Positions 11,185 through 54,765 of a stretch of DNA of 64,000 nt are shown here, piece after piece. Location of the stretch: the NCBI GenBank assembly GCA_964596875.1, contig CAZQVT010000002.1:5508-69507 (forward strand), read 5' to 3'. The translations under genes and the position numbers were made by a program. Source of the DNA: an uncultured Candidatus Saccharibacteria bacterium (GTDB lineage: Bacteria > Patescibacteriota > Minisyncoccia > Phycocordibacterales > DATDWN01). The notes beneath the pieces are model-generated. The model had not been told where the DNA came from and searched no databases. It saw only the letters and a list, made by a program, of their open reading frames with translations. Numbering within the stretch: position 1 is the first letter of the stretch; every line of letters begins with the position of its first letter.

Positions 11185-11322
11185 ATGTCTCAAACATATC
11201 AACCAAAAAAAAGAAAGAGAGCTAGAGCACACGGATTTCTAACAAGAAGTAAGACTGCTTATGGCAAAAAAACACTTCTAAGAAGAAGAAGAAAAGGACG
11301 GGCTAAACTTTCTACAGTATAG
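11185..11322 (+). CDS. rpmH: 50S ribosomal protein L34 (45 aa). It is absent from the ORF track because it is under 60 aa.
   Basis: Translated by hand as [45 protein letters not shown]. Canonical rpmH-rnpA-yidC order. Confidence 0.9.
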
Positions 11323-11352: not shown

Positions 11353-11700
11353 ATGTTGCCTAAAACAAGAAGAATAGAGAGAAAATACTTTAAACAAATA
11401 CTAACCCAGGGTAAAAGGTATAATTCCCAGTCTTTTAGCCTTTATTTGTCCAAAAATGACGAAGGTTCTACAGAAACACCTAGTAAGGTGGCTTTCTCAG
11501 TATCTAAAAAAGTAGTAAAAACTGCCGTAGGGAGAAACAAACTAAGAAGGAGGGGTTACTCAGCCATTTCTAAAAATATAAAGTCAATAAAACCAGGATT
11601 TCTTCTGTTTTTTGTGTATAAAAAGGACTACGAAAAGGATTATGTAAAAATTGAGTCCGAGATACAAACATTACTTTCACCTGCTCTTGTGATAATATAG
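11353..11700 (+). CDS. rnpA: RNase P protein component
   Basis: Basic 115-aa protein that follows rpmH. Confidence 0.88.
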   Translation: MLPKTRRIERKYFKQILTQGKRYNSQSFSLYLSKNDEGSTETPSKVAFSVSKKVVKTAVGRNKLRRRGYSAISKNIKSIKPGFLLFFVYKKDYEKDYVKIESEIQTLLSPALVII

Positions 11701-11704: not shown

Positions 11705-12421
11705 ATGACTTCAATATTTCACACACTTGTTTCTGAACCTTTATACAGCGGACTAGTTTTTCTTATAAATTCCCTACCCTTCTTTGATGTTGGTGTTGTA
11801 ATAATCATATTTACTATTATTACCAAGATAGTCTTGCTACCCCTTTCTATAAAGGCTTCAAAGTCTCAACTTGAGATGAAGAATGCCGAAAAAGACCTTG
11901 CTGTTATAAAACAAAAATATACAGATAAATCAGAACAGAGTTTGAAGGTGATGGAATATTACAAAGAAAAAGGCATAAATCCTTTTTCTGGAATACTTAT
12001 CCTACTTATTCAACTTCCTATACTTATCGGCCTGTATAGAGTGTTTTTGGGCCTACCAAAGATAAATCTAGACCTTCTATATAGTTTTGTGCCTGCACCA
12101 GAAACAATAAACATGATGTTTCTAGGTTTTGTTGATATGTCACAAAAAAGTTTGGTTTTGGCGCTTCTTGTTGGCGTTACAACATATATACAAACAAGCA
12201 TTGTGAGTTCAGGACAGACTACTGGTGGACAAGATAGTCAAAATGAAATTGCAAAAGCGATGGCTTTTCAAATGAAATACTTCCTTCCGGTATTTATTAC
12301 TGTAGTTATCTACAATATCTCTTCCGCCGTAGCCCTATATTTGTTTGTGAGTAACGTATTTTCTATTGCTCAAGAACTATATATCAAAAACAGATACCAT
12401 AAAAACATAGTGGTTGTTTAA
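11705..12421 (+). CDS. yidC: Membrane protein insertase YidC (short Oxa1-like form)
   Basis: 238 aa with 5 TM segments, following rnpA. Confidence 0.85.
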   Translation: MTSIFHTLVSEPLYSGLVFLINSLPFFDVGVVIIIFTIITKIVLLPLSIKASKSQLEMKNAEKDLAVIKQKYTDKSEQSLKVMEYYKEKGINPFSGILILLIQLPILIGLYRVFLGLPKINLDLLYSFVPAPETINMMFLGFVDMSQKSLVLALLVGVTTYIQTSIVSSGQTTGGQDSQNEIAKAMAFQMKYFLPVFITVVIYNISSAVALYLFVSNVFSIAQELYIKNRYHKNIVVV

Positions 12422-12435: not shown

Positions 12436-13680
12436 CTATTTAGTCAGGTCCAAACTCCAAAGAGAGTTGTCTTTTTTGTTTACAAACAACAAGTATTGGT
12501 CATTTTCAGAAATGATTGGTTTTATAAGATCAATCTCCTCCCCTGATTCTTTGTTTAGGTCTAAAATTATATTCGAAGTTTTGTTTTCCAGGTCGTATTT
12601 CCAAACGTCGTCATTAAATGATATTTGTCCTTTGTACCAAGCAGTCAAGTTTCCAACTGCTATAAAGTCTTTTGGAACGGCACAGTATATAACTTTTGTA
12701 TTTTTGTTCGCCCACACACATTTTTCAGGAAACGTTGCTGGAGAGATGGTTTCGATAGACATATCTTTTAAGGCATAAGTTTTCATTAGGGCTGATCCGT
12801 CTTGGTCAAGGTATAAAACATCACTACCTGTAGGATTTACTAAAGTAGTAAGACCTTTTATATCCCCCATTATTTTCCTAACCCCCGCGTTTGTTGTATC
12901 AACAAAATATAAATACCCTGGAGTGTTTTCCTCTGATTTTGTGGTTAGGGCAACAATTTTTGCATTTACATACTGAGAAACCAGCTCTCTTATTGGAGAA
13001 TTCCATATTTGTTTTTTGTTTTTTCCATCAAAACTAGATACAAAACCATAAGAAGCGTTACTAACTTGTTCAAGATAAAATACGCTAGATCCAAAAGCGC
13101 TAACACTAGAAATATTCTGTTCCATTGCGGTTCCAGATATTGTGTTTTCTGTTGTGGTGCTAATATTTTTAAGTGTAAGTGTGTATGTGTCTACAGTGAT
13201 GTCATCATCTTTAAGATATTGAGCAACTAGAGAATCGTTTTTGTTTCCCCAGAAGGCTTCATAAACCATTGGTATGGTTGTGTTAGAGATTCTACCTTGT
13301 CTAGGTGAAAACAATTCAACTTCATAAATGTGACCAGTTGCTTTTTCTATATATCTAACAACAGAGCCAGCCTTTACGTCTAGGATTCCTGCTCCAGCGA
13401 CAGGCTCAGAAGTTATTTTTCTTAGTTTTTGAGTAAAGTCATTGTTGGTCTCTACTGGCACTTCTTCTGGAGTTTCTTCAGGAGTGTTTGTGTTATCTGT
13501 TACAGTGTCGCCTCCAAACGGAAAGAAGTTTCTGAAAATATTTGTACTTGTTGGGCTTCCGTCTGGATTTTTATTCAGCATGTAAAATGCAAACAATACA
13601 AGTAGTACCAAAACTAGGATTACAGATATTAATATGTAGATATTTTTTTTAGACATCTTTTTTAAAATTGTATATGCCAA
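12436..13680 (-). CDS. Membrane-anchored (N-terminal TM) extracytoplasmic beta-rich protein. It is the last gene of the T4SS-like operon.
   Basis: Single N-terminal TM, then a 370-aa Thr/Ser-rich domain. An alternative start at M9 (13656) would remove the 19-nt overlap with the upstream gene. Confidence 0.55.
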   Translation of the reverse strand: MAYTILKKMSKKNIYILISVILVLVLLVLFAFYMLNKNPDGSPTSTNIFRNFFPFGGDTVTDNTNTPEETPEEVPVETNNDFTQKLRKITSEPVAGAGILDVKAGSVVRYIEKATGHIYEVELFSPRQGRISNTTIPMVYEAFWGNKNDSLVAQYLKDDDITVDTYTLTLKNISTTTENTISGTAMEQNISSVSAFGSSVFYLEQVSNASYGFVSSFDGKNKKQIWNSPIRELVSQYVNAKIVALTTKSEENTPGYLYFVDTTNAGVRKIMGDIKGLTTLVNPTGSDVLYLDQDGSALMKTYALKDMSIETISPATFPEKCVWANKNTKVIYCAVPKDFIAVGNLTAWYKGQISFNDDVWKYDLENKTSNIILDLNKESGEEIDLIKPIISENDQYLLFVNKKDNSLWSLDLTK

Positions 13681-14666
13681 TGATTACCTGTTGCTCTACC
13701 GTTATCGCCTGTTTCTTCATAAGTAGCGACTCCACCGCCAGGTATGTTTACCTGAGTTGCTGGTATATACCCTGGAGTTCCTCTTACACCAGAGGCACCA
13801 TGAGGAGTTTTTGCTTGAGGATTTGTTTTTGCAAAATAAGTTCGAAGAGAAGCTGAGTCGGAAACATCAACATTCGCTATGTTTGGGCCATGTGTCGCAT
13901 GACCACCTTCTGCACCTCCTGTAACCTGTATGTAACAATCTTTTACTACACTACTGCAAGCCCCTTTCATGGATTTAAGTCTTGTTATGGCAAGTTGAGG
14001 TAGGCCAACTATGTTTGTGCATCCTCTTGTTCCACCTGTCGTACAAGGTCCCGCATTAACCTCCACACTGTCTGGAGAACTACTCAATTGGTTCAGTAGC
14101 ACGGTGTTTTGTTGTTGTTGTGCAGGAGTAAGGGTGTAGCCATTTAAAATTCGTGTGCCATTTGCATTTGTTGTGTAGGTATATCCAGAAGTTGGAGCTA
14201 CTACTCCACCATTCCCACTTCCCGTGTTAGGATTGACGGTAAATTGTTGTATGTCTAAAGTAAAATCCAGCATTTTAGGGTTTATGGTTTGCAGAATTAC
14301 ATAAGAACCAATAACAAGTAATAGTCCCCAAAGTGCATTTTCTATCGCTTCTCTCCCCGCAGACTTGCCACTAAGGGCATCTGAAGTTGCATACATGACA
14401 CCACCGTAAACTATGACCACAAAAGCAAGTGCGACAGCGATTCCTATTGTTAGTTCAAACGCTCTCGGTAAATACATAGAAAGATCTGTGCATTGTTCAG
14501 CCTTACCATTAACTGTACAATTGACTGTTGTTCTGGGTAGTGGTGCTAGAACCACATAGTCTGTAGTTAGGGGTTGTTGCTGAGCTTTTACATATCCAGA
14601 TGTTAAAAATAAACCCAGTGATAAAAACGATGCAAGAAATATTTTTTTAACAGTCGCGGTTTTCAT
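13662..14666 (-). CDS. VirB2/TrbC-topology protein (signal peptide plus two TM helices) with a 190-aa Gly/Thr-rich C-terminal domain ending in HWH
   Basis: Signal peptide, then TM1 ELTIGIAVALAFVVIVYGGVMYA, a short loop, and TM2 LWGLLLVIGSYVILQTI. The C-terminus is ...GNHWHIQF. Confidence 0.5.
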   Translation of the reverse strand: MKTATVKKIFLASFLSLGLFLTSGYVKAQQQPLTTDYVVLAPLPRTTVNCTVNGKAEQCTDLSMYLPRAFELTIGIAVALAFVVIVYGGVMYATSDALSGKSAGREAIENALWGLLLVIGSYVILQTINPKMLDFTLDIQQFTVNPNTGSGNGGVVAPTSGYTYTTNANGTRILNGYTLTPAQQQQNTVLLNQLSSSPDSVEVNAGPCTTGGTRGCTNIVGLPQLAITRLKSMKGACSSVVKDCYIQVTGGAEGGHATHGPNIANVDVSDSASLRTYFAKTNPQAKTPHGASGVRGTPGYIPATQVNIPGGGVATYEETGDNGRATGNHWHIQF

Positions 14667-14667
14667 T

Positions 14668-15678
14668 TTAATTATTTTGGTTATTAAATACTAAGTTAAA
14701 AATGTGCGAGTCAGACTGTAGTATTTTGTCGGTGCTTTCTACTGTAAGTGATATATTCGATGAGCCAACACTTCCTTCCCCAGGTCTAAAAGTTTGTGCC
14801 CACTGACTTTTCTCATTGTTTAGTGGTTTACCATTTATAGACCATGTATTTACCAAACTTTTATTTTTTAGTTCATCACCGTCAAAAAAGAAAGGCATTC
14901 CTATTACAGTTATCTCGTTTGTGTTATTTAACGCCAAACTACTACCTATTGCGTTTTGAAACTGTATTCCATAAGTTGGATCTTTTTTGTAAATGATAAT
15001 AGTCGGTTCTACTGGGTTTAGAACTATACTTCCAAAGGCTTGTCCATTGTCAGAGGTAACTTCTACACTTACTGTGACCGCTCTGGATATAAGTGAACCT
15101 TCGAAGGTAAAGGTATTTTTCCCATAACCTGATAATGTTTCAACTACTGAACTGTTTCTTTTCCATTTATATGTTAAATTTTTAGGGTTTATGTCTACTC
15201 CGTTTGCATTTTTAATATGAGGAAAAGCAATAACAGTTACTTTGTCCTGGTGAGCAAATAGTGACTTGCCCTTGTAAAAAGGTGGTACGAAACCGTGACT
15301 CTCCCACATAAGGTCTACGCTAGCTGGTTTTAGGTCTATATTTTTCTCAATAGTACCAGAGTCTGTGGTTTTTACTGTTATTCCAAGTGTGGTGATTTGG
15401 TCATCTCTTCCCATGGTAAAGTTGAACACCTTTTCACCTGTGCCACTTTTTATTGTTTTGCCATTTACTCTCCATGTAATACTCGCAACGTTTATATCGG
15501 TTGCATAACTAGTTAGGTAAACATAAACATTGTCCCCCGCTTTGGGGATCTCGGGCACCATTTGTATATTTACCACTTCACTTACTCCAAAATTTTGTGC
15601 GTGAACTTTTGTATAAAAACCAAAGATAGAAAAAACTAAAATAGTTATAAATGTTGGAATAAAAATAGAGCGTTTCAT
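14668..15678 (-). CDS. Secreted protein with three tandem beta-sandwich repeats of about 110 aa
   Basis: Signal peptide. Repeats are marked by ITWRVNGKTIKSGTGEKVFNFT, LTYKWKRNSSVVETLSGYGKNTFTFEG and WSINGKPLNNEKSQ. Confidence 0.55.
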   Translation of the reverse strand: MKRSIFIPTFITILVFSIFGFYTKVHAQNFGVSEVVNIQMVPEIPKAGDNVYVYLTSYATDINVASITWRVNGKTIKSGTGEKVFNFTMGRDDQITTLGITVKTTDSGTIEKNIDLKPASVDLMWESHGFVPPFYKGKSLFAHQDKVTVIAFPHIKNANGVDINPKNLTYKWKRNSSVVETLSGYGKNTFTFEGSLISRAVTVSVEVTSDNGQAFGSIVLNPVEPTIIIYKKDPTYGIQFQNAIGSSLALNNTNEITVIGMPFFFDGDELKNKSLVNTWSINGKPLNNEKSQWAQTFRPGEGSVGSSNISLTVESTDKILQSDSHIFNLVFNNQNN

Positions 15679-15731
15679 CTTTATAATTGTAGCATCAGCA
15701 TCAAAATATTTATATTACTTTATACACAATA

Positions 15732-16223
15732 TTATGCTGCTTTCCCTAAATCATTATTGCTTATTCTTGTACTAGTTTTGCTTGCCTTCTGAGCAAACTT
15801 CAATACTTTTCCACCCATGTTTACTGCTTTATTTGCCACAGGAGCGAGTTTTGTTGCGACATTTACAACTTTTACTGCTGTGTTAACAAGGTTTAGGATG
15901 GTGTCACTTTTATAAATGATGTAATAGTAAATACCATCAAGTGTCCATAAGGGTAGTTCAGATATACCAGGCCACATTTCTAGACCAAAAGTTCCCAGTA
16001 ATCCAAAAAGCCTTTTAGGATTCCCCATACTCTGTCCTCGCATTTGTAAGTATAGTGCTAAACTCATAGCCACCCATAAATCTATAAGAAAGTTTATAAC
16101 AATACTTATGCCGGCGAACCAAACAAATATCCATTCTATAAAAATTTGAATCGCATCAACAATAAATAGTGCGGCAATAACAAGTCCCCACTCCAAGTTG
16201 CTGATTTTAGGTTTATCTTCCAT
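15732..16223 (-). CDS. Small polytopic membrane protein of the T4SS-like operon
   Basis: 163 aa with 3 predicted TM segments and a basic C-terminus. Confidence 0.5.
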   Translation of the reverse strand: MEDKPKISNLEWGLVIAALFIVDAIQIFIEWIFVWFAGISIVINFLIDLWVAMSLALYLQMRGQSMGNPKRLFGLLGTFGLEMWPGISELPLWTLDGIYYYIIYKSDTILNLVNTAVKVVNVATKLAPVANKAVNMGGKVLKFAQKASKTSTRISNNDLGKAA

Positions 16224-16237
16224 TTCCTAATTATACA

Positions 16238-18049
16238 CTACTTACTGTTTTCTAATTCACTTCTAGCTTTTTTGATAGATAATATTTGAGATGGGTCAGA
16301 GGTAATAATCTGGTCCTCTGTGTATGAGGCGATTATTTTTATAGCTACATGCTTTAGGCCAGCAAAGAAGATACCCTCCCCCACATCTGACTCAAGTAGT
16401 AGATATTTCTCTTCATCTGTAAGGCTAAATGCTTGTTGCAGTTTATCTATCGCAGTTGGAGACTGTTTTAGAAGTATCTGTATAGAAGAGTTAGTAATAA
16501 TCGGTAGGCCGTACGGAGATTTTAGGAAGTCATCCACGTCTTGGGTGATTGTTGCAAGTCCCAGGTAGTATTTTCTGCCTCTTTTTGCAAGAGAAAGAAG
16601 GAATGAAGCGGTGTCTTCAGATTTCATCATCCACCACGCCTCATCGATAACTAGAAGTCGCTTTTTAAGTTTCTTTCGAATCATATTCCAGATATAGTGC
16701 ATGATGATATACATGGCGATAGGTTTTAACTCGTCCTCCATGTCTCGGAGTGAGAACACGATAAACCTTTTGTTTATATCCACGTTACTTGGTTTGTTTA
16801 TGAAGCCAGCCCAAGTTCCTCTAGTGTATTTTGTAAGTCTTTGTGCTAGAGAGTCCCCTCCTTCCATTCCAGAAAGCACAAGCTCAAAGTCTGAAAGTAG
16901 AGGTGGTTCAATGTTTTCAAAGTTTGAGTCAGCAGTGATGTCTTTAAGTGCATATGTTTCTGTTATGGCTCTATCGATAATAGCGTCTTCTTCTGGTGTA
17001 AGTCCTCCCATCATGATTCTAAAAAGCCCCACCAGGTTTATAATGTTTGAACGCAAAACACTTGCAAACGACTCGTCTTCTCCTGGAACGGGTAGTTCAA
17101 ATGGGTTTATGTGGTGCTCAGAGTTAAGAGAGATGTTGAAAAACCTACCCCCTACTGCTTCTGCTAGGTACTCGTATTCTTTTTCTGGGTCGAGCACAAT
17201 AACGTCTGTATCAAACATCAAAGTTCTCAATATTTCTATCTTTGTTGCGTATGACTTTCCGGAACCTGACTTTGCAAATGTTATAGAGTTGTAGTTTTCA
17301 AGTGAAAATCTATCAAAAAGCACCAGAGATGAATTGTGTCTGTTTATTCCATACAAAATTCCCTTGTCTGAAGTAAGGTCAAAAGAAACAAACGGGAAAA
17401 GAGAAGAAAGTGGGGATGAATTTAGTTTGCTATACACCTCTAGACCGTCTGTGGCAATAGGTATTGCCGCCTTAAAAGCTTGTTCTTGTTGGAATAGAGC
17501 AGGTTTTAGATAAACTAATTTTGCTTCTAGGATAGACTTTATTTCTGACTCCACCTTGTCTAGTTCTTCACTAGAGTCTGCATACATTGTTATATACAAA
17601 CCAACATCAAAAAGTCTCTCCTGAGCCTGTTGCAGGTTGTCCCGCAGACTTTCTAGGTCTTGGTATGCAGTGTCTAGCATTGGGTCACGAACAAGACCCT
17701 TCGCTTCCCTGGCGTTTATCTGACTTTGTACCTCGGCCACCTTCTTTTGGAAGTTTCTTAGAACGGCCGATGTTTCGATAGGTTTAACGAAAATAGATAC
17801 ATCAAATATTTTGTCCAGGTTAATGATTGGAGAAAACCAGTTATCTCCTAGGAAACGTGGGTAAGAGATAACAAAGAAGCTTCTCAAAACTTTTTCACCA
17901 AGGTTTATTTCCTTCGGCGCTACTTTTAGAGCACTAGGAGCGATAACATCTTTTAGTTCTAGACTACTTGAGTCGTATATTTCTTGAGGAAGTATTGTAG
18001 ATATTTCCTTTTCTTCTTTTTTTGGTTTTAGAAAATCAAATAGTGACAT
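16238..18049 (-). CDS. VirB4/ConE/TrbE-family conjugation-type ATPase, C-terminal ATPase part
   Basis: Walker A FAKSGSGKSY, Walker B LLVIDEAWWMM. At 603 aa it is shorter than the roughly 800 aa typical of this family. Confidence 0.85.
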   Translation of the reverse strand: MSLFDFLKPKKEEKEISTILPQEIYDSSSLELKDVIAPSALKVAPKEINLGEKVLRSFFVISYPRFLGDNWFSPIINLDKIFDVSIFVKPIETSAVLRNFQKKVAEVQSQINAREAKGLVRDPMLDTAYQDLESLRDNLQQAQERLFDVGLYITMYADSSEELDKVESEIKSILEAKLVYLKPALFQQEQAFKAAIPIATDGLEVYSKLNSSPLSSLFPFVSFDLTSDKGILYGINRHNSSLVLFDRFSLENYNSITFAKSGSGKSYATKIEILRTLMFDTDVIVLDPEKEYEYLAEAVGGRFFNISLNSEHHINPFELPVPGEDESFASVLRSNIINLVGLFRIMMGGLTPEEDAIIDRAITETYALKDITADSNFENIEPPLLSDFELVLSGMEGGDSLAQRLTKYTRGTWAGFINKPSNVDINKRFIVFSLRDMEDELKPIAMYIIMHYIWNMIRKKLKKRLLVIDEAWWMMKSEDTASFLLSLAKRGRKYYLGLATITQDVDDFLKSPYGLPIITNSSIQILLKQSPTAIDKLQQAFSLTDEEKYLLLESDVGEGIFFAGLKHVAIKIIASYTEDQIITSDPSQILSIKKARSELENSK

Positions 18050-18060
18050 AAAAGTTTATA

Positions 18061-18696
18061 TTACGAAGTTTTAATAGGTTTCTCTGTGTCCCCCGGATTA
18101 AATATTTTGTAAAACAACTCAACAATCTCTTCTGTTCCAAGTTTTACTACACGGATTCCACATCGAGACAGTCCCTGTTCTACTACTGAAACTCTTTGCT
18201 CTAGTTGTGTGCGGTTTTCCTCAAAACTAGTCTCTTTTCTCGCTAGTTCTTCTTCAGAGTTTGTTTTTTTAAAGAAACCAACCCCACCGCTTTTGATGTT
18301 TATAAGTGCGGGGTCGTAGGGAACAACAATAAAGAAACTTTTTGTCATTATGTTAGTAGACTCTGTGAATTTTTTTATAAACTCAATATATTCCCTAGTC
18401 TGGATTTTCATTAGATCATTCATCTGTTCCTTGTACCTGTCCTCTAGCAGGGCTATATACGGCCGTATGTCTAGTCTTCTGGACTGAATGGAAACTTGCA
18501 CTGTGAAGTCCAGAGAGTTTAGGAAATCTTGAAACTGCAAGATGATTGCTCTTCTTTCATCTTCTGACTTTAGACTAAAGTTAAGAGAAGAAGTCATAAT
18601 GAGGCTTCTAAGAGAACCATCTTTTAAAATAATAGTTCCTCCCCTGACCTCTTTTATTGGCACAAATTCTTGAGTTGCTTTTGAGTTTATTGCCAT
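18061..18696 (-). CDS. VirB4/ConE-family N-terminal domain encoded as a separate 211-aa ORF
   Basis: PIKEVRGGTIILKDGSLRSLIMTSSLNFSLKSEDERRAIILQFQDFLNSLDFTVQVSIQSRRLDIRPYI matches the N-terminal signature of Gram-positive VirB4-like ATPases (Tn916 Orf16 / ICEBs1 ConE type). The stop codon lies 11 nt before the ATG of the ATPase ORF, in a different frame. Confidence 0.6.
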   Translation of the reverse strand: MAINSKATQEFVPIKEVRGGTIILKDGSLRSLIMTSSLNFSLKSEDERRAIILQFQDFLNSLDFTVQVSIQSRRLDIRPYIALLEDRYKEQMNDLMKIQTREYIEFIKKFTESTNIMTKSFFIVVPYDPALINIKSGGVGFFKKTNSEEELARKETSFEENRTQLEQRVSVVEQGLSRCGIRVVKLGTEEIVELFYKIFNPGDTEKPIKTS

Positions 18697-18723
18697 AAAA
18701 ATATTATATCAGAAAAAAATAAA

Positions 18724-19161
18724 TTATTTTGTTGTTTGTCCATCTTTTCCTGTGAGTGGATTAAGATTTTCATTTATGTCCAAAGTCCAAGTCAAATCTT
18801 TTAGTTTACTGTCAGAAATTCTAGGCATGTAAACCTGTCTTGTTGGGTCCTTGTAAACTGTTTCAGTCTTAACTATTTTTTTGTCCTCTTTTTTCCATAT
18901 GTATAGGTTTTGTTTTGTGTAAAAAAGAAAGGCTGACTCCATAAAGTCTATAAATGGTTTGTTGTTTACTTTGTAGAACGCCAAAGCCACAGAAAGTGGT
19001 CCAACTACAGCAATGAGGAGTATTGATACATATATAGGTAGGTATTTGAAGATCACAAAACACATGCCTGCCCCACCAGCAAGGTATATGAATTGTTTTA
19101 CAGTCAAAGGTCCTATAACCTTATCCTCTACATCAATAAATTGTGGTACTTGGTATCGCAT
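18724..19161 (-). CDS. PrgI/TcpE/VirB3-like small membrane protein
   Basis: N-terminus RYQVPQFIDVEDKVIGPLTVKQFIYL followed by two TM segments. It lies immediately upstream of VirB4, as in Gram-positive T4SS. Confidence 0.6.
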   Translation of the reverse strand: MRYQVPQFIDVEDKVIGPLTVKQFIYLAGGAGMCFVIFKYLPIYVSILLIAVVGPLSVALAFYKVNNKPFIDFMESAFLFYTKQNLYIWKKEDKKIVKTETVYKDPTRQVYMPRISDSKLKDLTWTLDINENLNPLTGKDGQTTK

Positions 19162-19195
19162 AGCAAAATTATATTACAAATTTAAAAAACAAAAT

Positions 19196-20071
19196 TTATT
19201 CAAGCGGTTCTCTGTACGGATCTTTCTGGTATTTTGTTTCTATTGGTTTAATACTCGGAGTAACACTATTTAGTTTACTTCCCACTATAGGGTTGCTGCT
19301 AGGTGCTGGAGTTTTGTATATTTCTTCTGTCGCGTATCTAGGAACGCCAATGCCCATGTTTGTATTCTGCTTCTGGTTGTCCAGAGCATCATTTTGGAAG
19401 GCAGGTTTTATCATTTCCTTCGGAATATTTAGTGTGGTGCTACCAAAGCTCATTGGTTCGTTTTTTACAACTGGTGCCATTTCTTGAGGAGTATCTACCA
19501 CCTTTTTTGTAGCAGGCATAACTGTACCCCTTTCAAATACTCTGTTTTCTAGTTCGTAAACAATTTGGTCAGCTAGTATGTTTGAGATGTTCAGGAGGTT
19601 TACCAAATCTGTTCCTGTAATTTTCTCCCCCAGGTTTCTGTCTATTACACTCATGACTTCATTTTCTAGAACAGTTGCCTGACTAGTGCTTAGTCCGTAT
19701 TTATTTACTATATCCCCAACACGTTTCTTAGAAGTAACAGGATCGATTTTTGTCTCAGTTTTGTTTTTATTTATAAGTTCTAAAATTGGATTTAAAATCC
19801 TTTCACCAACCTCTAAAGATATTTTTTCTGCATCTTCATGACTTAGGTGTGCTTCAGTTTCAAGATTGCCTATGTATTTTTCAGATGAGACTATTCCAAA
19901 AACCAATAAAACTGTTTCGTAAATAAAAGAATCTTCATCTTGGATAGTCTTATTTTCTTCGATTATTTTTCTAATACTTTCAAGCCACGGCGTGCTTTTG
20001 ATCGCAAAAACCATATCTTTCGGCAAAATTTTTATTCTTTCACTTAAAATTTTTTTAATTTCTTGTTCCAT
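19196..20071 (-). CDS. Hypothetical soluble protein of the T4SS-like operon (291 aa)
   Basis: No TM segment and no recognisable motif. Tightly packed in the operon. Confidence 0.5.
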   Translation of the reverse strand: MEQEIKKILSERIKILPKDMVFAIKSTPWLESIRKIIEENKTIQDEDSFIYETVLLVFGIVSSEKYIGNLETEAHLSHEDAEKISLEVGERILNPILELINKNKTETKIDPVTSKKRVGDIVNKYGLSTSQATVLENEVMSVIDRNLGEKITGTDLVNLLNISNILADQIVYELENRVFERGTVMPATKKVVDTPQEMAPVVKNEPMSFGSTTLNIPKEMIKPAFQNDALDNQKQNTNMGIGVPRYATEEIYKTPAPSSNPIVGSKLNSVTPSIKPIETKYQKDPYREPLE

Positions 20072-20075
20072 GTTT

Positions 20076-21986
20076 TTATGGTGTTGGTGTGGCCTGTGCT
20101 GGTGCGGGCGCAGCTGGTGCTGGTGCTGCAGGTTCTTCTTCTTTTAATACTTCAGCTAGATCAGCCAGTATCTTGTCTTTTCCACCCTTCTTTGATTTTT
20201 TGCCCTCTCTCATTCTTCTTGCGGCTTCAGCATCTTCTGAAACTCCAGTATAAAGGTTTGGTGTGTACCATTGAGTCTGGCTGATATTGTGTATATATCT
20301 CTGGCGTCTTTCTGCGGTATTACGTTCCGCTCCTTGTATTAGTAATCTTTGATATCTCTCTCTTTCCCTTTCTGCCTCTCGAGCAACCATAGCAGTTGCA
20401 TCAGCTCTTGACCTTCCTGCTACAACATAAGCATTTACTCTTCCTTCATTTGAAACCTTGTCCCAGCCTCTTCTTTCCATTTCTGCTTCTACGTCTGCAC
20501 CAGTTACTGTGTCACCTAGATTATTTTCAGCAAATTTCATTCTGTCGTTTATTCGAGCCTCTCTTTCTGCTTGGTATCCACCTTTTCCACCAGCCTTGCC
20601 CATTCCAGTCATTTTCCCTATTGCTGTTGATCGTACATCAAAACTTGCTGAGCCGGTCTTGTTTCCTGCTGTTAATGCGAGACGAGCGAGCCTGCTGTCA
20701 GGAGCTCTTTCTCTTAGCCATTGACTGTTTGCAACAGATTGTCCGGCAAGGCCAACACTGTTTCTTAGGCCAAGTGCTCCGACATTCATGATCTTACCGC
20801 CAGCGTATGAAGTTAAGTTTTTTGTTGCTTGTCCCACAAATTTTGAACCTCTTGATGCTGAACTTTTTGAAACTGTAAGTGAGGCAATAATTAAACCAAT
20901 TAGAATAACAAAGTTAAAAATTAAACTTATTGAACTTTGTGAGTATGTGGCACTCAACTGACCGGCATCTCCGGATGCAAGTCGTCCGATTGCGTCTGGA
21001 TCTATTAAAAATCTAGAGGTACTCATGAGTTGTAGTACTACCCAAGTCATGATCATGTAGATTGGGCCAAATGTTAACTGTCCAGTAAGTGTTTCCCACC
21101 ACTCACCTGCCGCTTTTCCTAGGCCTGGTATAGCGGTACCCATATATGCCACAGGAGAAAGTATTAGCAAAATAATTAGTGTTACATATCTGATTATAAA
21201 AATAATTGAAATAGAAAAGAAAACAAAAGCCGTAACCATAAAAAGCACGGCACCTAGTATGGGCACCAGAAGCATATTTGCATCACCGCCAGTCCTAACA
21301 TTGGTAAAGTTTGCTTTTGACCAGAAAGATGATAGACCCAGATTTTTCATAAAAGGAATAGATATACCCGAAAGTGGTATTATAGTTTGTCCGCTCTGGT
21401 CTACGATGGGTTTTCCTTGGCCAGCACTTTGAATAATAGATTTATAAAATCCAAGGGTGACGATATTTGAAGCGTCTATGAGTATTTTTGTGAAAAATAA
21501 ACTAAAGTTTACTAAAAGTGCTGCCAGAATAAGTGTGGAGATAAATTTTTTTATTGACTCCTTACTTCCCACACCAATAATTAGTTCTATTCCCTTGTAG
21601 ACCAAGATAAATATAAAGGCTATGTTCATTAGGTCCTTTATCACCTTCCAGGTTATATTTATTCCCGTAAGGTCGTCCAGGTTAACTTTGAGGTCAATAA
21701 TGGTGTACCGAAGCACATAGTCTAAAAGTGTTCCTGATAGGTACAGAACCCATGAAGCAATTCTCAGAACAATGTTATAGAGTAGCCATGTGAATATGTC
21801 TGTAAGGGCATTGATCACACAAGTTCCCCATCCAGAAAGCCATCCACACTCAGTATCGTTTGATCTATCTATCTGGCCTACTGTAGGGTTTACTGTACCG
21901 CCAGTACCTTGTGCAGTTACAAATACAGGAGCAAATACTCCCAAAAGTATCGTTAGTATTAGTAAATGTGAAAGGATTTTTTTCAT
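20076..21986 (-). CDS. VirB6/TrbL-like polytopic membrane protein with a charged C-terminal extension (PAAPAPAAPAPA tail)
   Basis: Signal peptide, at least 6 TM segments, and a long Arg/Glu-rich C-terminal region. The start is taken at M13 (21986), which avoids the overlap that the 22022 start would create. Confidence 0.65.
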   Translation of the reverse strand: MKKILSHLLILTILLGVFAPVFVTAQGTGGTVNPTVGQIDRSNDTECGWLSGWGTCVINALTDIFTWLLYNIVLRIASWVLYLSGTLLDYVLRYTIIDLKVNLDDLTGINITWKVIKDLMNIAFIFILVYKGIELIIGVGSKESIKKFISTLILAALLVNFSLFFTKILIDASNIVTLGFYKSIIQSAGQGKPIVDQSGQTIIPLSGISIPFMKNLGLSSFWSKANFTNVRTGGDANMLLVPILGAVLFMVTAFVFFSISIIFIIRYVTLIILLILSPVAYMGTAIPGLGKAAGEWWETLTGQLTFGPIYMIMTWVVLQLMSTSRFLIDPDAIGRLASGDAGQLSATYSQSSISLIFNFVILIGLIIASLTVSKSSASRGSKFVGQATKNLTSYAGGKIMNVGALGLRNSVGLAGQSVANSQWLRERAPDSRLARLALTAGNKTGSASFDVRSTAIGKMTGMGKAGGKGGYQAEREARINDRMKFAENNLGDTVTGADVEAEMERRGWDKVSNEGRVNAYVVAGRSRADATAMVAREAERERERYQRLLIQGAERNTAERRQRYIHNISQTQWYTPNLYTGVSEDAEAARRMREGKKSKKGGKDKILADLAEVLKEEEPAAPAPAAPAPAQATPTP

Positions 21987-21993
21987 TTTTAAA

Positions 21994-23691
21994 TTACCTA
22001 AAGATTGCGCCAACTTGTCCATTTCCAGTTATGTTTCCTCTGCAAGTGTTGCTTGGGTTAAATACCGCACACGGACCTGTCCAGCCAACAAAGTTTCTAC
22101 CGATTGCTGGTGTCGCTGTTATGGATACTAAAGAGTCGACCGGATAAGGTTTGCTACATGTAGTTGTCGCTGGATTGGTTAGGTTTGAACACGTATCTAC
22201 TCCATCAGTTACAGAGCCTCCAGGAGAAACATCGATTGTAAGTGTGTATGTTGAGCCTGTTCCAGGTAGAGGTATTGGTGGGTTTGTTGCTGCACTTCCA
22301 GCTGGGTTTCTGTTACATGCGCATTCAACATTCCAAGTCCATCCACTACCTGCACCTGTGCCACCAACTGCACCTACCATAACGTCTACAACCATTCCAT
22401 TTCCAAAATCAAACTTATCCAGTCTTCTGTGAGGAATTACAAAAGCCCATGGGTATTGACCCTTTACTTCGCTTTCTGCAGAAGTCATGCCGGCATTTGT
22501 TAGAGGGTATTTGTTCAGTATTCCTAAAACAGTACCGCTATCTACTCTTGTACAGTCTACACTTGGGTTTGGAGTATACGCAGGACATGAACTTCCTCCA
22601 CTTCCCCCACTTCCAAGTGGCCACGGAGGTATTCCACCTATGTCAGCTGGAGTTGTCTCACAACTTACAGAACCTCCGGTTCCTCCAGTGTATGAGTCAA
22701 TTATTCCGTCACCGTCGGTATCAACACCCGTACCACTGTTTCCTCCATTTGAAGTACAAGTTAGTGTTGGTTGAGAAGCAGATGGTTGATAGTTTTGATA
22801 TGGTTGTGATTCTGCAGCAATCTGGTCAACAAGTGATGGTGAAGTGTTGTTTGCACCTGTTTTTTCACTTGCACCCATTAGACCACCTGCATTTCCAGCA
22901 ACCTGTTCAATAAGTTGAGAAACAAGCGCTGTAATAATCTCGTTAAACTCATCAGCAGAAACCAATTCTCCCCATTTTGTTCCCAGAGTATCTTTTATTT
23001 GGTCACTAATAACTCCACCAGGTGTAACAGTTTCTTCTTCTACAGAACAGATTGTCGCCTGTGATACTGGATCAACAAAGGTTTGTGCTCCTCTCGGGCA
23101 TCGTTTTAAACTCAAAAAACCTGCACCAAGGTCAATTTCTTTTTTCTTATTAGCTGCGTCACTGCCCACTATTATTGAAAGTTGATTTTTTGCTGCCAAA
23201 TAGGAGCCATAAGGGTTGTTTTCTGAATTTTGAGTAATTTCAAACCAACCCTGCCATCCTCCCTCTGTAAAATCCTGCGTAAACGCATCGTAGTTATTCT
23301 GTAGAATGCTTAAGGTACAAGAATAATTGTTATTGTCATCATTTATATAGTTTTTTGCTAGTGCAAGTCTAACTTCTGCCTTGAAAGGACTACAAAGTTT
23401 GTTTACTCCTGCTTGTGATAGAAACTGTGAGGCGATATTGTCCCCTGCATCTAGGAAAAATTTACCAGGGTCACTTATATAACCAGGATTTCCCTTAAAA
23501 CCGTTGTTTATCCAGTTTACGGTTTTTTGAGTAAGTTTTCTTGTAACTGTTTTGGCTGCGACATAGGCTATGGTATCCAAACCGTATTCCTTTAAAGCGT
23601 TTGAAATATCTACATATTGAGCATTAGTTTTTTCTGGGAAGGAAACAAGTAAAACTGAAAAGATTAAAAAGGATGCAAGTATTTTTTTCAT
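21994..23691 (-). CDS. Secreted 565-aa protein. It has a DTDGDGIID calcium-binding-like motif, Gly/Ser-rich linkers and a C-terminal beta-repeat domain (NFVGWTGPC).
   Basis: Signal peptide MKKILASFLIFSVLLVSFPEKTNA. The C-terminal GW-containing motif resembles Listeria-Bacteroides-type repeats. Confidence 0.55.
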   Translation of the reverse strand: MKKILASFLIFSVLLVSFPEKTNAQYVDISNALKEYGLDTIAYVAAKTVTRKLTQKTVNWINNGFKGNPGYISDPGKFFLDAGDNIASQFLSQAGVNKLCSPFKAEVRLALAKNYINDDNNNYSCTLSILQNNYDAFTQDFTEGGWQGWFEITQNSENNPYGSYLAAKNQLSIIVGSDAANKKKEIDLGAGFLSLKRCPRGAQTFVDPVSQATICSVEEETVTPGGVISDQIKDTLGTKWGELVSADEFNEIITALVSQLIEQVAGNAGGLMGASEKTGANNTSPSLVDQIAAESQPYQNYQPSASQPTLTCTSNGGNSGTGVDTDGDGIIDSYTGGTGGSVSCETTPADIGGIPPWPLGSGGSGGSSCPAYTPNPSVDCTRVDSGTVLGILNKYPLTNAGMTSAESEVKGQYPWAFVIPHRRLDKFDFGNGMVVDVMVGAVGGTGAGSGWTWNVECACNRNPAGSAATNPPIPLPGTGSTYTLTIDVSPGGSVTDGVDTCSNLTNPATTTCSKPYPVDSLVSITATPAIGRNFVGWTGPCAVFNPSNTCRGNITGNGQVGAIFR

Positions 23692-23775
23692 ATAGAAAAT
23701 AATTTATATATTACAAACAAATTATATCCTATTATGAAAAGTAAATCTCAATAATAAACTCAAATATGTTGAAAA

Positions 23776-24612
23776 CTAACGAAATTCGGTAACTGTTTTT
23801 TTGCTCAAGAATGCATTTAGGGTAGTAACTGCTTTTCCAAAGTTTTGCATGTTTGTAGTATAGTCCCCCACAACAGAGAAAACTTTTACCGGATCAGAAA
23901 CTGCAGAACGTATTGCCTCCAGGTTGCTTAGTATTTTTGATGAGGCGTTCAAAAGGTTTAGGTGCATGGGTATTGCGGCTTCAGGAACCTCCATTTCAAG
24001 TAGCGTTTTAATTGTGCTCTTGTTTATGACTATGAGAGGGTCTAGTTTTTTGAGTTCCTTTTCGTTATCAGACTGTAGGCCGTTTACTAGTATGGCCATA
24101 GGGTCAACTTTTACATCATAATATACAGAAATAAGCGCTTGGTTTATTTTTTGAGAGTAAGCATCGAAAGTTAACGGGTCATCTTTTTTAATGATTTTTA
24201 AGTTTTCTTTGATGTATACAACTGAATTTTGCTTGTAGTCAGGCAGTGAAAGTGTGTTGTCTACTATTTTTGAGGCCATTTGAGGAGTAAGTCCTTGTCC
24301 GTTTTTAGCTATTATTAGATACTGCGACAAAATATCTCGAGACATTTGGTCTGTTAGAGTGTTGTCCCCTTCTGAAATATTTACTGTTTTTGTCAGGTCG
24401 ATAACTTTTGAGTTTGCTTTGTTGCTGTCAGTTAGAATTTTTTTCCAGTCGTAGTCCGTGTTTTTTATAGCTATGGGATCTTCAGCAACCACCCCATCTT
24501 TTTTAGTGGGTGTTGTTTTTGAGAGACTTTTTTGTTTGTTATTTATAAACCAAACCGAAACAACCACACCAAAACATAGTATAAAAATAGTAAGAGTTTT
24601 GTTACTAGGCAT
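23776..24612 (-). CDS. N-terminally anchored extracytoplasmic protein (278 aa). It is the first gene of the operon and a possible VirB8-like component.
   Basis: Single N-terminal TM plus a 240-aa domain. The size and topology fit VirB8-like proteins, but there is no sequence motif. Confidence 0.45.
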   Translation of the reverse strand: MPSNKTLTIFILCFGVVVSVWFINNKQKSLSKTTPTKKDGVVAEDPIAIKNTDYDWKKILTDSNKANSKVIDLTKTVNISEGDNTLTDQMSRDILSQYLIIAKNGQGLTPQMASKIVDNTLSLPDYKQNSVVYIKENLKIIKKDDPLTFDAYSQKINQALISVYYDVKVDPMAILVNGLQSDNEKELKKLDPLIVINKSTIKTLLEMEVPEAAIPMHLNLLNASSKILSNLEAIRSAVSDPVKVFSVVGDYTTNMQNFGKAVTTLNAFLSKKTVTEFR

Positions 24613-26285: not shown

Positions 26286-27072
26286 TGTGTTTTGTTAGTT
26301 CATTTGAAATTTTTACCCATGTTTTAAGATCTAAATCTTCTGCTCTAACTTTCGGATCTAGATGTAATTTTTCAAAGACATTTTGCACATTTTCTTTTTC
26401 AAAATCGTTTGAAAGGTTTGGTAAGAGTTGCTTTCGTTTATGCGCAAAGCCCGAATGTAAAACTTTGAAATAATCTTCAATGTTTAGTCCGTGAAGTTTA
26501 ATGTCCGAAATATTTTCTATGTTTATTACTGCAGAGTCTACGTTCGGAGACGGTGTAAATGCCCCCCTACCTACAGTTCGGATTATTTTTGGCTCGCCAA
26601 AAACTTTCACTGAAAGTGAAAGAAGGCTTTCTTTTTTGTCTCGAGCTACGATTCTTTCTGCTACTTCTTTTTGAACAAGTAGTGTCATGGAAACGGGTTT
26701 ATTTTTAGCCTCTAAAAATTTGCGGATGATTTGTCCAGTGATGTAGTAAGGAATGTTGGCGATAACCTTGTAATTGTTTCCCAAAGGTAGTTTTTCAGTT
26801 TCGATTTCCAAAATATCAGATTCAATAAGCACTAATTTGTTTTCGTTTATTTCATTTATAAACTTTTCATGAAGGAGAGGAATGAGTCTGTGATCTTTTT
26901 CTACAACAATAACCTTCCCCGCTTTCTTTAGAAGATTTTCGGTCATTACTCCTTCACCCGGGCCAATCTCTAAAACAATATCTTTATCCAAAACTTTTCC
27001 CGCAGAAACAATATCACTGACTATTTGAGGTGATTTTAAAAAGTTTTGTCCTAGGGATTTCTTTTTAAGCAT
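26275..27072 (-). CDS. rsmA: 16S rRNA (adenine1518/1519-N6)-dimethyltransferase
   Basis: SLGQNFLKSPQIVSDIV...LEIGPGEGVMT SAM motif. Confidence 0.9.
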   Translation of the reverse strand: MLKKKSLGQNFLKSPQIVSDIVSAGKVLDKDIVLEIGPGEGVMTENLLKKAGKVIVVEKDHRLIPLLHEKFINEINENKLVLIESDILEIETEKLPLGNNYKVIANIPYYITGQIIRKFLEAKNKPVSMTLLVQKEVAERIVARDKKESLLSLSVKVFGEPKIIRTVGRGAFTPSPNVDSAVINIENISDIKLHGLNIEDYFKVLHSGFAHKRKQLLPNLSNDFEKENVQNVFEKLHLDPKVRAEDLDLKTWVKISNELTKHNGK

Positions 27073-27073
27073 T

Positions 27074-31958: not shown

Positions 31959-32037
31959 AGCCGGTAGTCTATGCCTATTTATCCAAAAGACAACTTCCCA
32001 AACACCTAATTCTGTGATTTTTTGTTTTTTACACCTA

Positions 32038-53106: not shown

Positions 53107-53114
53107 CACCATCG

Positions 53115-54760: not shown

Positions 54761-54765
54761 TAAGA

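Follow-up and report, generated by a model that had tools for sequence, protein, structure and literature searches.

The eleven genes that lie between ksgA and yidC/dnaA in the 64-kb stretch of DNA analyzed here (the window) very probably encode a non-conjugative type IV secretion system (T4SS), arranged in one conserved block without mobility genes. Judged from its sequences, the block consists of a two-gene VirB4 motor, a PrgI/VirB3-like protein, a putative extended VirB6-like protein, a VirB2-type pilin and six accessory envelope or soluble proteins. That it represents the T4SS of the Patescibacteria is close to certain, and a role in host contact or translocation appears somewhat more plausible than one in conjugation. 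Relaxase-less, MPF-FATA-derived and origin-proximal Patescibacteria T4SSs with TrsD, PrgI, VirB6 and VirB2-like pilins have already been published (Wang 2023; Quinonero-Coronel 2025; a 2025 review), and papers from 2023 to 2025 report a relaxase-free chromosomal T4SS cluster beside dnaA in nearly all ultrasmall Patescibacteria. The preliminary description of this DNA had called such modules poorly characterized, which no longer holds at the genomic level: their composition, their lack of a relaxase and their neighborhood are published (Quinonero-Coronel et al., 2025, Microb Genom, PMC12102498), and their essentiality in a Saccharibacterium has been shown (Wang et al., 2023, Cell, PMC10633639). 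The window therefore presents no new kind of system, but a clean and complete Paceibacteria example.

Table 1. Genes of the T4SS block and their chromosomal neighbors, with positions in the window
Feature	Position	Strand	Basis or remark
dnaN	8421-9521	minus	Pfam
dnaA	9733-11073	minus	Pfam
rpmH	11185-11322	plus	ORF
rnpA	11353-11700	plus	Pfam
yidC	11705-12421	plus	Pfam
g11, 414-aa N-anchored protein, probably beta-propeller	12436-13680	minus	last gene, convergent with yidC
g10, 334-aa VirB2/TrbC-type T4SS pilin with C-terminal Cys/His domain	13662-14666	minus	family and fold matches
g9, 336-aa exported protein, three tandem Ig-like repeats	14668-15678	minus	repeat test
g8, 163-aa small membrane protein, 2-3 TM	15732-16223	minus	hydrophobic segments
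g7, 603-aa VirB4-type ATPase (motor domain)	16238-18049	minus	NCBIfam, Pfam
g6, 211-aa TrsD-like protein, putative detached VirB4 N-terminal domain	18061-18696	minus	NCBIfam
g5, PrgI/VirB3-like membrane protein	18724-19161	minus	Pfam PrgI
g4, 291-aa soluble protein	19196-20071	minus	position kept, sequence fast-evolving
g3, 648-aa polytopic protein, putative extended-VirB6-like channel subunit	20076-22022	minus	long hydrophilic C-terminal tail
g2, 565-aa secreted protein	21994-23691	minus	conserved N-terminal domain of ~300 aa, then variable adhesin-type C-terminal domains
g1, 278-aa N-anchored protein	23776-24612	minus	first gene of T4SS block
uvrD-ksgA-ubiA	24633-29014	minus	housekeeping, not T4SS; Pfam UvrD, RrnaAD, UbiA

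The eleven tightly packed ORFs that had been described on the minus strand are all present. By their coordinates, they are separated by gaps of 84, 4, 34, 27, 11, 14, 53 and 1 nt, while g2/g3 and g10/g11 seem to overlap by 29 and 19 nt, respectively. Both overlaps vanish if conserved internal ATGs at 21986 (g3) and 13656 (g11) are the true starts, which is probable; in the alignment of g11 orthologs, M9 is nearly invariant. The co-directional string extends beyond these eleven genes, as uvrD, ksgA and ubiA run into the operon with gaps of at most 20 nt and may share its transcript.

The motor subunit g7 matches the NCBIfam model NF045971 (conju_CD1110) over profile positions 179-733 of 752 (1.9e-112; 377 bits, cutoff 325), as well as Pfam P-loop_TraG (9.2e-29) and AAA_10. 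Its nearest solved structure is the VirB4 of Thermoanaerobacter (4AG5, 2e-39), and both its Walker A (AKSGSGKS) and its Walker B motif (LLVIDEAW) are intact. For comparison, we used the 80 loci from Paceibacteria/Parcubacteria MAGs that rank highest by VirB4 similarity, out of at least 527 related species; VirB4 identity to these 80 ranges from 78 to 93%. The preceding gene, g6, forms an ORF of its own, read in a different frame and ending 11 nt before VirB4 begins. It aligns to positions 3-117 of the CD1110 VirB4 profile, to positions 101-233 of VirB4_plasma (NCBIfam, 2.7e-12) and to positions 16-200 of 201 of TrsD (2.6e-7, under the NCBIfam cutoff of 200 bits); by these matches, it is a TrsD-like protein predicted to supply the N-terminus that g7 lacks.

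The earlier statement that VirB4 comes in two pieces is thus accurate with regard to the two ORFs, but not if taken to mean a disrupted gene, since a conserved pair of separate TrsD-like and VirB4 genes is found in 77 of the 80 loci. Two ORFs in different frames, together with six of eleven products without a family assignment in Pfam or NCBIfam, might otherwise be read as the decaying remnant of a pseudogenized system. The conservation data refute this reading, to which we assign practically no probability: both parts of the split are well conserved (median identity across species 66% for g6 and 81% for VirB4), all eleven ORFs are intact, as are the Walker motifs, and every slot of the operon is filled across species. 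What the present analysis adds is that the split is a conserved two-gene design and not decay.

Next to the motor genes, g5 passes the Pfam PrgI model (E=1.5e-9; 38.7 bits, cutoff 27) and also matches TcpE (1.1e-4), and a PrgI gene is found in 77/80 loci. The profile searches that had been suggested as a check therefore place both VirB4 and PrgI over threshold, and the assignment of g5 as PrgI/VirB3-like stands. The 648-aa protein g3 had been described as polytopic, in agreement with its five or more hydrophobic segments. It has no Pfam match and no relative in the PDB; among 35 orthologs, three match TrbL/VirB6 (up to 6e-5) and one matches TrbL_4. As in published Patescibacteria clusters, it adjoins the g4-PrgI-TrsD-VirB4 genes on their upstream side, and we regard it as a putative extended-VirB6-like channel subunit, which owes its VirB6 name to those three of 35 orthologs.

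The remaining small or soluble partners also correspond to what had been noted. For g4, previously listed without assignable function, no TM segment is predicted and no family match is found in Pfam or NCBIfam. Of 59 loci, 58 have an ORF on the plus strand in the corresponding slot between the VirB6-like and PrgI genes; the longest such ORF measures 175-599 aa and in 53 cases has no predicted TM segment. Sequence similarity to g4 is detectable in only nine loci. The 163-aa protein g8, described with three TM segments, is predicted to have two to three (residues 7-25 and 39-57, plus a weaker third), and in 58/72 loci an ORF with one to five predicted TM segments likewise occupies the place between VirB4 and g9. 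Finally, g1 was rightly called N-anchored: it has a single N-terminal TM segment (residues 6-24). It has no relative in Pfam, NCBIfam or the PDB, and an ortholog with 21-46% identity can be detected in 26-30 of the 80 loci, in each of which it lies between ksgA/ubiA and g2.

Four products may be exposed on the surface. In g10, a pilin module (approximately residues 1-135) is followed by a C-terminal Cys/His domain of ~170 aa, which bears out the VirB2 topology and large C-terminal domain proposed earlier. The pilin family is matched by all 43 g10 homologs, the fold matches that of a conjugation pilin, and the C-termini vary among relatives. A similar pattern is seen in g2, which had been described as a secreted protein with a DTDGDGIID motif and GW-repeats. 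A hydrophobic N-terminus and the DTDGDGIID motif are present, but the GW-repeats are not borne out: there is no GW-domain match, only scattered GW dipeptides. DUF4141 is matched by 12 of 54 g2 homologs (up to 4.4e-6), while the window protein itself has no such match at E<=0.1; adhesin-type folds are found, and again the C-termini vary. Our analysis adds that both the pilin and g2 are modular, each with a conserved N-terminus (DUF4141-like in relatives of g2) that carries variable surface domains.

For the Cys/His domain of g10, the residues of the motifs H-x-x-G-x-x-x-D and E-x-x-H are (nearly) invariant in pilin-fused and stand-alone homologs; the stand-alone homologs, which have no Pfam match, display exact HxxGxxxD...ExxH. 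In LAS/peptidase M15 zinc hydrolases, which share the Hedgehog/DD-peptidase fold, both motifs are metal-binding or catalytic. Two of 43 g10 homologs match Peptidase_M15_4 weakly (0.013), whereas the domain itself has no Foldseek match in the PDB at E<0.001, no PDB profile match and no PHROG match. It is an uncharacterized domain whose motifs look putatively M15-peptidase-like.

The three tandem repeats noted in g9 are recovered with z = 7.1, 4.0 and 4.7 against shuffles, and its orthologs, found in 77/80 loci, weakly match Ig_3, BiPBP_C, PKD_3 and Big_2. The description of g11 as N-anchored and beta-rich is likewise supported, by a TM segment at residues 14-32 and by weak matches of its orthologs to TolB (0.24), DPPIV_N, PD40 and DUF5050, which suggest that it is probably a beta-propeller; it is found in 65/80 loci and is always the last gene. 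Neither a VirB8-like (NTF2) nor a VirB1-like sequence match was obtained for g1, g9 or g11, and no substrate, effector, VirB8-like or VirB1-like component was recognized within the operon. The sole recognizable wall hydrolase nearby is a LysM-M23 protein at 29193-30293, outside the operon.

The position of the block beside the rpmH-rnpA-yidC/dnaA-dnaN core, noted at the outset, is confirmed by Pfam, ORFs and synteny. The dnaN, dnaA, rpmH, rnpA and yidC neighbors are kept in 56-61 of the 80 loci, with dnaA at most 10 kb from the cluster in 58, and on the other side ksgA flanks the cluster in 49 and uvrD in 36. The proposed search for the same gene order in related genomes found it in all 18 Paceibacteria loci that were mapped in full, each time at the same site between ksgA and yidC-rnpA-rpmH|dnaA-dnaN. 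VirB4 identity exceeds DnaA identity in 58/58 loci, although the VirB4 figure is inflated because the loci were picked by VirB4 similarity. A fixed site and order, combined with slow VirB4 evolution, indicate vertical inheritance rather than mobility.

These observations bear on the possibility that the operon is an ordinary integrative conjugative element (ICE), or the transfer module of one, moving DNA between cells. Its best VirB4 family was indeed defined on a Clostridioides conjugative transposon, PrgI and TrsD are families of conjugation plasmids, and a tyrosine recombinase is encoded at 34659-35630. However, this recombinase, the nearest one, is Xer-like, and 10 kb of housekeeping genes stand between it and the operon. 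No integrase, tRNA or att-like direct repeats flank the operon (the nearest tRNA is at 38650), and its GC content equals that of its surroundings. Consistent with the original observation, family scans revealed no relaxase among 51 products, which cover the real-looking genes of the window (other ORFs that reach 100 aa are either small or lie opposite a scanned gene with which they overlap), and no coupling protein (VirD4/TcpA) within the 64 kb. VirD4-like genes are common in Patescibacteria, usually far from virB4 (PMC12102498), and a coupling protein may be encoded elsewhere in this genome. With site and order kept in related species and VirB4 evolving more slowly than DnaA, we consider an ICE highly improbable, and the earlier proposal of a chromosomally fixed system for host interaction is upheld.

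Among known systems, the Paceibacteria arrangement (PMC12102498) is the closest. It shares the MPF-FATA VirB4 with adjacent TrsD, the PrgI/VirB3 protein, a VirB2-like pilin near virB4, the absence of a relaxase and the neighborhood of dnaA, dnaN, rnpA, rpmH and ksgA; g3 would correspond to its VirB6-like protein. Nothing essential differs; the accessory genes are not described individually there, whereas here we find a ~330-aa pilin with a C-terminal domain and g2, g9 and g11 as conserved partners. The T4SS of Southlakia epibionticum ML1 (SEML1_0006-0019; PMC10633639) similarly has a large membrane protein, PrgI, 0009 and VirB4 on one strand, where 0009 is the TrsD homolog reported for ML1 (PMC12102498). 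Further shared features are PF18895 pilins and a cluster that lacks a recognizable relaxase or coupling protein, and low locus-tag numbers suggest a location near the chromosome start. Yet the Southlakia pilins, six in number and small, are encoded in a divergent array of their own, and a separate lysozyme/glucosaminidase protein follows virB4 on its downstream side, while the window has a single pilin gene inside the operon, with a fused Cys/His domain, and additional Ig-repeat and propeller proteins.

More distant are the Gram-positive MPF-FATA systems (C. difficile CTn2 with the CD1110-type VirB4, pGO1 TrsD, pCF10 PrgI). They have in common with the window the CD1110 equivalog model, TrsD-like and PrgI-like partners and a monoderm-type set without outer-membrane core proteins. 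By contrast, no relaxase, T4CP, VirB8-like or VirB1-like gene was recognized in the operon, which instead has a VirB2-type pilin absent from those systems and is fixed in the chromosome rather than carried by a mobile element. Compared with archaeal conjugation/Ced-type pili (Aeropyrum pernix pilin, PDB 8dfu), the pilin here has an extra globular domain. In Bacteroides CTns, DUF4141 genes adjoin traJ and traG (PMC10434189); the Patescibacteria proteins are much longer than their Bacteroides counterparts and have adhesin-type C-termini.

Taken as a non-conjugative T4SS, the block could work as follows. The VirB4/TrsD ATPase would dock on PrgI and the VirB6-like protein in a single membrane and, as VirB4 does in other systems, pull pilin from the membrane to form a short fiber or conduit through the wall. 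The DUF4141-like secreted protein, the Ig-repeat protein, the propeller protein and the C-terminal domain of the pilin would display surface modules, which in the pilin and the DUF4141-like protein differ between species, and these modules may touch the envelope of the host cell and perhaps cut into it. Since no relaxase or coupling protein lies nearby, proteins or host-derived material would be likelier cargo than conjugative DNA.

Such a machine might also run inward. The archaeal Ced system imports DNA and is not known to have a relaxase or T4CP, and a VirB4 motor with a pilin could likewise serve the uptake of DNA or host material into a nucleotide-auxotrophic cell; Patescibacteria lack de novo nucleotide synthesis. 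The partial matches of g7 to CedB (2e-8; 33 bits, cutoff 700) and CedD (2e-5; 23.5 bits, cutoff 600) are short and far under cutoff, though, so that a Ced-type identity was rejected for this ATPase, which passes the bacterial MPF-FATA VirB4 model. Moreover, DNA uptake during transformation of Southlakia needs ComEC, whose loss is not lethal, while the T4SS is essential. We judge import unlikely. Equally doubtful is a mere attachment organelle, in which the ATPase builds a pilin/adhesin fiber for holding the host and nothing is translocated. The pilin, the adhesin-fold proteins with variable C-termini and the missing coupling protein would suit it, and a separate type IV pilus cluster in the window makes surface fibers a theme of this genome; but PrgI/VirB3 has been kept and conserved, along with a putative VirB6-like channel protein, and adhesion of Saccharibacteria is already ascribed to type IV pili, with the T4SS nevertheless independently essential.

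The Patescibacteria T4SS is of interest as one of a small number of machines known to be indispensable to ultrasmall bacteria living as epibionts, essentiality for epibiotic growth having been demonstrated for the homologous cluster of Southlakia only (PMC10633639). Three points may help to guide experiments. The motor is a conserved two-gene VirB4 whose evolution is slower than that of DnaA. The constant N-modules and swapped C-terminal surface domains of the pilin and the DUF4141-like protein form the pattern expected of host-recognition parts, and in one swapped domain the residue pattern resembles that of a metallopeptidase. If confirmed, these points would tell which parts touch the host and which could serve to predict its range. 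More speculatively, and with odds that we rate as rather low, the Paceibacteria T4SS could be a modular carrier instead of a plain VirB2 pilin system: the pilin hairpin and the N-module of g2 would be fused to interchangeable, species-specific extracellular domains, one of them a zinc-peptidase-like domain that has not been described before and also occurs free-standing in Streptomyces, the fiber would present modules that cut the wall or bind the host, and the swapping of domains on the pilin would set the host range. T4SS pilins are among the most-expressed unknown genes in Paceibacterales enrichments (PMC10936435).

The eleven ORFs of the T4SS block (g1–g11 in transcription order) encode proteins 145 to 648 aa long; they are separated by gaps of 84, 4, 34, 27, 11, 14, 53 and 1 nt and show two apparent overlaps of 29 nt and 19 nt. 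Both overlaps disappear if translation begins at internal start codons: for the VirB6-like protein g3, the longest ORF starts at ATG 22022, and an ATG 12 codons downstream, at 21986, removes the overlap with the upstream gene; for the last gene, g11, the longest ORF starts at TTG 13680, and an ATG 8 codons downstream, at 13656, does the same and encodes a methionine that is nearly invariant in the orthologue alignment. The block is convergent with yidC, at a stop-to-stop distance of 14 nt, and is continued upstream on the same strand by ubiA, ksgA and uvrD with gaps of at most 20 nt; it thus represents the last eleven genes of a co-directional string of 14 genes (29014 to 12436). Promoter and terminator scans returned sites that were fewer or no commoner than in shuffled sequence, so that transcript boundaries are not placeable by scan. 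The descriptive items given for the eleven genes in the preliminary description were all reproduced, except for the ‘GW-repeat motifs’ reported in the 565-aa secreted protein g2, for which domain-level support is absent.

The motor of the system is encoded by two adjacent genes. With the curated NCBIfam equivalog of CD1110-type VirB4 conjugal ATPases, the 603-aa VirB4 ATPase (g7) scores 377 bits (1.9e-112), above the cutoff of 325, and aligns to positions 179–733 of 752. It also matches Pfam P-loop_TraG (9.2e-29) and AAA_10, has intact Walker A (AKSGSGKS) and Walker B (LLVIDEAW) motifs, and finds its nearest solved structure in the C-terminal domain of Thermoanaerobacter VirB4 (4AG5; 2e-39), with R388 TrwK behind (4e-8). 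The VirB4 N-terminal positions absent from g7 are covered by the 211-aa TrsD-like protein (g6), which lies directly upstream in another frame, separated from g7 by a stop codon, 11 nt and an ATG. It matches positions 3–117 of the CD1110 model, positions 101–233 of VirB4_plasma (2.7e-12) and positions 16–200 of the 201 in TrsD/TraD (2.6e-7). Since the same two-gene split is found in 77 of 80 related loci, we regard it as a design feature rather than as decay, and a reading of the two pieces as a VirB4 pseudogene is thereby ruled out.

Among the putative channel and pilin subunits, the 145-aa PrgI/VirB3-like protein (g5) passes Pfam PrgI with 38.7 bits against 27. The 648-aa VirB6-like protein has at least five hydrophobic segments followed by a hydrophilic tail of ~250 aa; it has no family match itself, and a PDB profile search with it gave chance-level matches only, but among 35 orthologues, three match TrbL/VirB6 (6e-5) and one TrbL_4. 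Likewise, the 334-aa pilin (g10) alone obtains a weak T4SS_pilin score (0.0058), while all 43 of its homologues searched match this family (best 4.7e-9) and three match TrbC/VirB2.

A VirB4 scan of the genome collection found relatives in at least 527 species, of which the best 80 are Paceibacteria/Parcubacteria-type MAGs with a VirB4 identity of 78–93%. The recurring order, ksgA-(ubiA)-g1-g2-g3-g4-PrgI-TrsD-VirB4-g8-g9-g10-g11, beyond which lie yidC-rnpA (opposite strand) and then dnaA-dnaN, is kept in all 18 loci that were mapped in full, with one rearrangement (locus L033). Within the 80 loci, we detected VirB4 in 80, the TrsD-like protein, PrgI and the Ig-repeat protein g9 in 77 each, g11 in 65, the pilin in 62, the VirB6-like protein in 60, dnaA in 58 and g2 in 56. 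Family searches gave no assignment for g1, for the soluble 291-aa protein g4 or for the small membrane protein g8. In 58 of 59 loci, a plus-strand ORF fills the slot of g4, in most cases with no predicted TM segment, and in 58 of 72 loci the g8 slot contains an ORF for which 1–5 TM segments are predicted; these two genes are fast-evolving and conserved by position. Median identities are 81% for VirB4, 66% for the TrsD-like protein, 62% for DnaA and 52% for DnaN. In all 58 loci holding both proteins, VirB4 is more similar than DnaA, by a mean excess of 17.5 points that is biased upward, as similarity of VirB4 was the criterion for choosing the loci. Judged from these identities, and with the figure inflated by this choice of loci, VirB4 appears to be under a strong constraint that is unusual for a secretion ATPase. 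Many TPA-assembled MAGs that bear the label ‘uncultured Candidatus Saccharibacteria bacterium’ (L001, L009, L015 and others) carry the Paceibacteria-type operon and synteny, and their VirB4 is ~80% identical to Parcubacteria/Zambryskibacteria records; the labels on these MAGs look generic rather than accurate.

The products scanned across the 64 kb include housekeeping and envelope functions (gatB, obg, tyrS, a class A PBP, dnaN, dnaA, rpmH, rnpA, yidC, ubiA, ksgA, uvrD, CCA enzyme, RNase Y, clpP, tig, ppa, nusA, tpiA, pgk, recJ, exonuclease III) as well as a LysM-M23 protein, a ComM-like ATPase, a DksA/TraR-type zinc finger, a NYN protein, a Xer-like recombinase and a type IV pilus cluster, and there is no relaxase or coupling protein among them. 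The recombinase does not flank the T4SS block, from which it is separated by 10 kb of core genes, and has housekeeping neighbours. No att-like direct repeats were found around the block, the tRNA nearest to the operon lies at 38650, and GC content is equal inside and outside the block. We reject an integrative conjugative element on account of the lack of a relaxase and coupling protein in 64 kb, of a flanking tRNA or att repeats and of a GC shift, together with the fixed synteny; the product scan and this synteny bear out the earlier claim that the module is chromosomally fixed and that the window holds no relaxase or coupling protein.

Coordinates of the T4SS block, of sites within its products and of other features in the window
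Feature	Coordinates	Strand	Remarks
T4SS block	12436-24612	-	g1–g11
Pilin C-terminal Cys/His domain	13662-14190	-	predicted globular domain
TSP3-type motif of g2	22700-22730	-	DTDGDGIID
LysM + Peptidase_M23 wall hydrolase	29193-30293	+	divergent from uvrD, 4.6 kb upstream of T4SS block
ComM-like Mg-chelatase/AAA protein (514 aa) + DksA/TraR-type C4 zinc-finger protein (119 aa)	30414-32397	-	upstream of uvrD-led string
Tyrosine recombinase, XerC/D-type	34659-35630	+	Phage_integrase + N-terminal SAM-like domain; sole recombinase found
Type IV pilus cluster	50611-58653	+	PilB-type ATPase (T2SSE, 1.9e-116), PilC (T2SSF), at least two N-methyl-motif pseudopilins

In the type IV pilus cluster, one pseudopilin of 628 aa carries CarboxypepD_reg and SpaA-like domains, and a 485-aa protein has no family match.

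The putative proximity of the block to the replication origin is judged from its linkage to dnaA, dnaN and rpmH only. The rpmH-dnaA spacer measures 111 bp and the dnaA-dnaN spacer 211 bp, the latter with two DnaA-box-like sites. The window contains 25 DnaA boxes where 18.9 are expected, which is no enrichment, and four-fold degenerate sites show too weak a skew (+0.02 to +0.06) to locate the origin; bulk GC skew tracks the coding strand. Between 11.3 and 50.5 kb, 26 of 36 genes lie on the minus strand, including the whole T4SS block. If oriC is located between rpmH and dnaA, the T4SS operon and these minus-strand genes would accordingly be transcribed head-on to replication.

These observations agree with published work. 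A survey of 3,035 Patescibacteria genomes found VirB4 in 2,417 assemblies, most of it falling into a single clade within MPF-FATA, with TrsD as the commonest partner, with PrgI/VirB3, VirB6 and VirB2-like pilins near virB4, and with relaxases almost absent; in Paceibacteria, the surroundings of virB4 are rich in dnaA, dnaN, rnpA, ksgA and rpmH, which was read as origin proximity (Quinonero-Coronel et al., 2025; PMC12102498). The Gram-positive-like Southlakia cluster SEML1_0006-0019, which has essential pilins and no recognisable coupling or relaxase proteins, is essential for epibiotic growth (Wang et al., 2023; PMC10633639), and in Paceibacterales enrichments, T4SS pilins are among the most expressed unknown genes (Kuroda et al., 2024; PMC10936435). 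A 2025 FEMS review restates the main points of the Patescibacteria T4SS papers. The operon is therefore one more example of an already known kind: the preliminary observation is confirmed and its interpretation supported, and both coincide with this published work. The survey also associated VirB1 homologues with virB4 in Paceibacteria and described VirB1-like matches with M23/LysM domains (PMC12102498). Given this association, and since 7 of the 80 related loci have an M23 homologue no more than 10 kb from virB4, the LysM + M23 protein is a candidate and could be the hydrolase of this T4SS.

The components, their order, how well they are conserved and the lack of mobility genes in the window are direct observations; we infer the steps of a mechanism by analogy with the roles of VirB4, VirB3, VirB6 and VirB2 in studied systems. 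PrgI and the VirB6-like protein would carry a motor made of the TrsD-like protein and VirB4, this motor would pull the pilin out of the membrane to build a fibre or conduit across the wall, and g2, g9, g11 and the pilin C-terminus would be exposed and make contact with the host. Sequence cannot separate three uses of such an apparatus: the export of proteins, to which we give roughly an even chance, a Ced-like import of host material, which seems improbable, and a purely adhesive role, which we likewise consider unlikely.

The residual interest of the operon lies in the modular architecture of its pilin and of g2, and in a Cys/His domain not previously characterised. The latter spans pilin residues ~176–334 and is predicted with good confidence as a globular domain (pLDDT ~90). 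Two Cys, GG-E, H256, D267 and H329-W-H331 are invariant in it, and H259 and E317 nearly so. According to profile searches, it also occurs as a free-standing, secreted protein of 150–200 aa in Actinobacteria (e.g. Allokutzneria) and on Streptomyces and Deinococcus replicons; the stand-alone group shares the motifs VTGGTE-GH...SHWNGYKxD...ExxHWD. Where the free-standing proteins are annotated, they are named hypothetical, and plasmid matches all fall either on a ‘hypothetical protein’ or on a stretch that lacks an annotated feature. Pfam searches with the stand-alone homologues, and PHROGs and tblastn searches against phages, found nothing, nor did PDB profile searches with the whole pilin and the cropped domain, and Foldseek found no significant match in the PDB; the domain belongs to a family without annotation. 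VanX/VanY-type M15 zinc peptidases carry H-x-x-G-x-x-x-D together with E-x-x-H, which the motifs of this family resemble, and two of 43 pilin homologues match Peptidase_M15_4 weakly (0.013). As a tentative hypothesis from these motifs, against which the empty searches above weigh and to which we give somewhat less than an even chance, the domain may be metallopeptidase-like, of the M15/LAS type.

Of the 66 pilin orthologues in the related loci, no more than 16 have the Cys/His motif. Most others resemble the pilin described here only as far as the end of the N-terminal hairpin (at residues 133–161) and continue into unrelated C-terminal extensions, with overall sizes of 130 to 474 aa. This pattern suggests a pilin that carries interchangeable surface domains. 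Similarly, g2 has a conserved N-terminal region of ~300 aa, in which 12 of 54 homologues match DUF4141 (best 4.4e-6), and C-termini that vary by species (InlB B-repeat-like, Bact_surface_Ig-like, TIG, Big_3, InlK_D3), with homologue lengths from 323 to >1000 aa. With a constant N-terminal module and variable C-termini, both proteins thus point to a common architecture in which the variable end is exposed. In Bacteroides conjugative transposons, DUF4141 genes adjoin traJ and traG (PMC10434189). The N-terminal helical part of g2 is predicted with low confidence in the AF2 model (pLDDT 40–60), so a VirB5-type comparison is not justified.

PDB profile searches with g1, g9 and g11 gave chance-level matches only. 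The three internal repeats of g9 are Ig-like, and its orthologues match Ig_3, BiPBP_C, PKD_3 and Big_2 weakly; the N-anchored g11 gives weak beta-propeller signals (TolB, 0.24; DPPIV_N, PD40, DUF5050). Residues ~324–332 of g2 form a calcium-binding TSP3-type motif, and bacterial TSP3 repeats are matched by 8 of 96 pooled orthologues of accessory proteins (g1, g9 and g11), with values of up to 7.6e-9.
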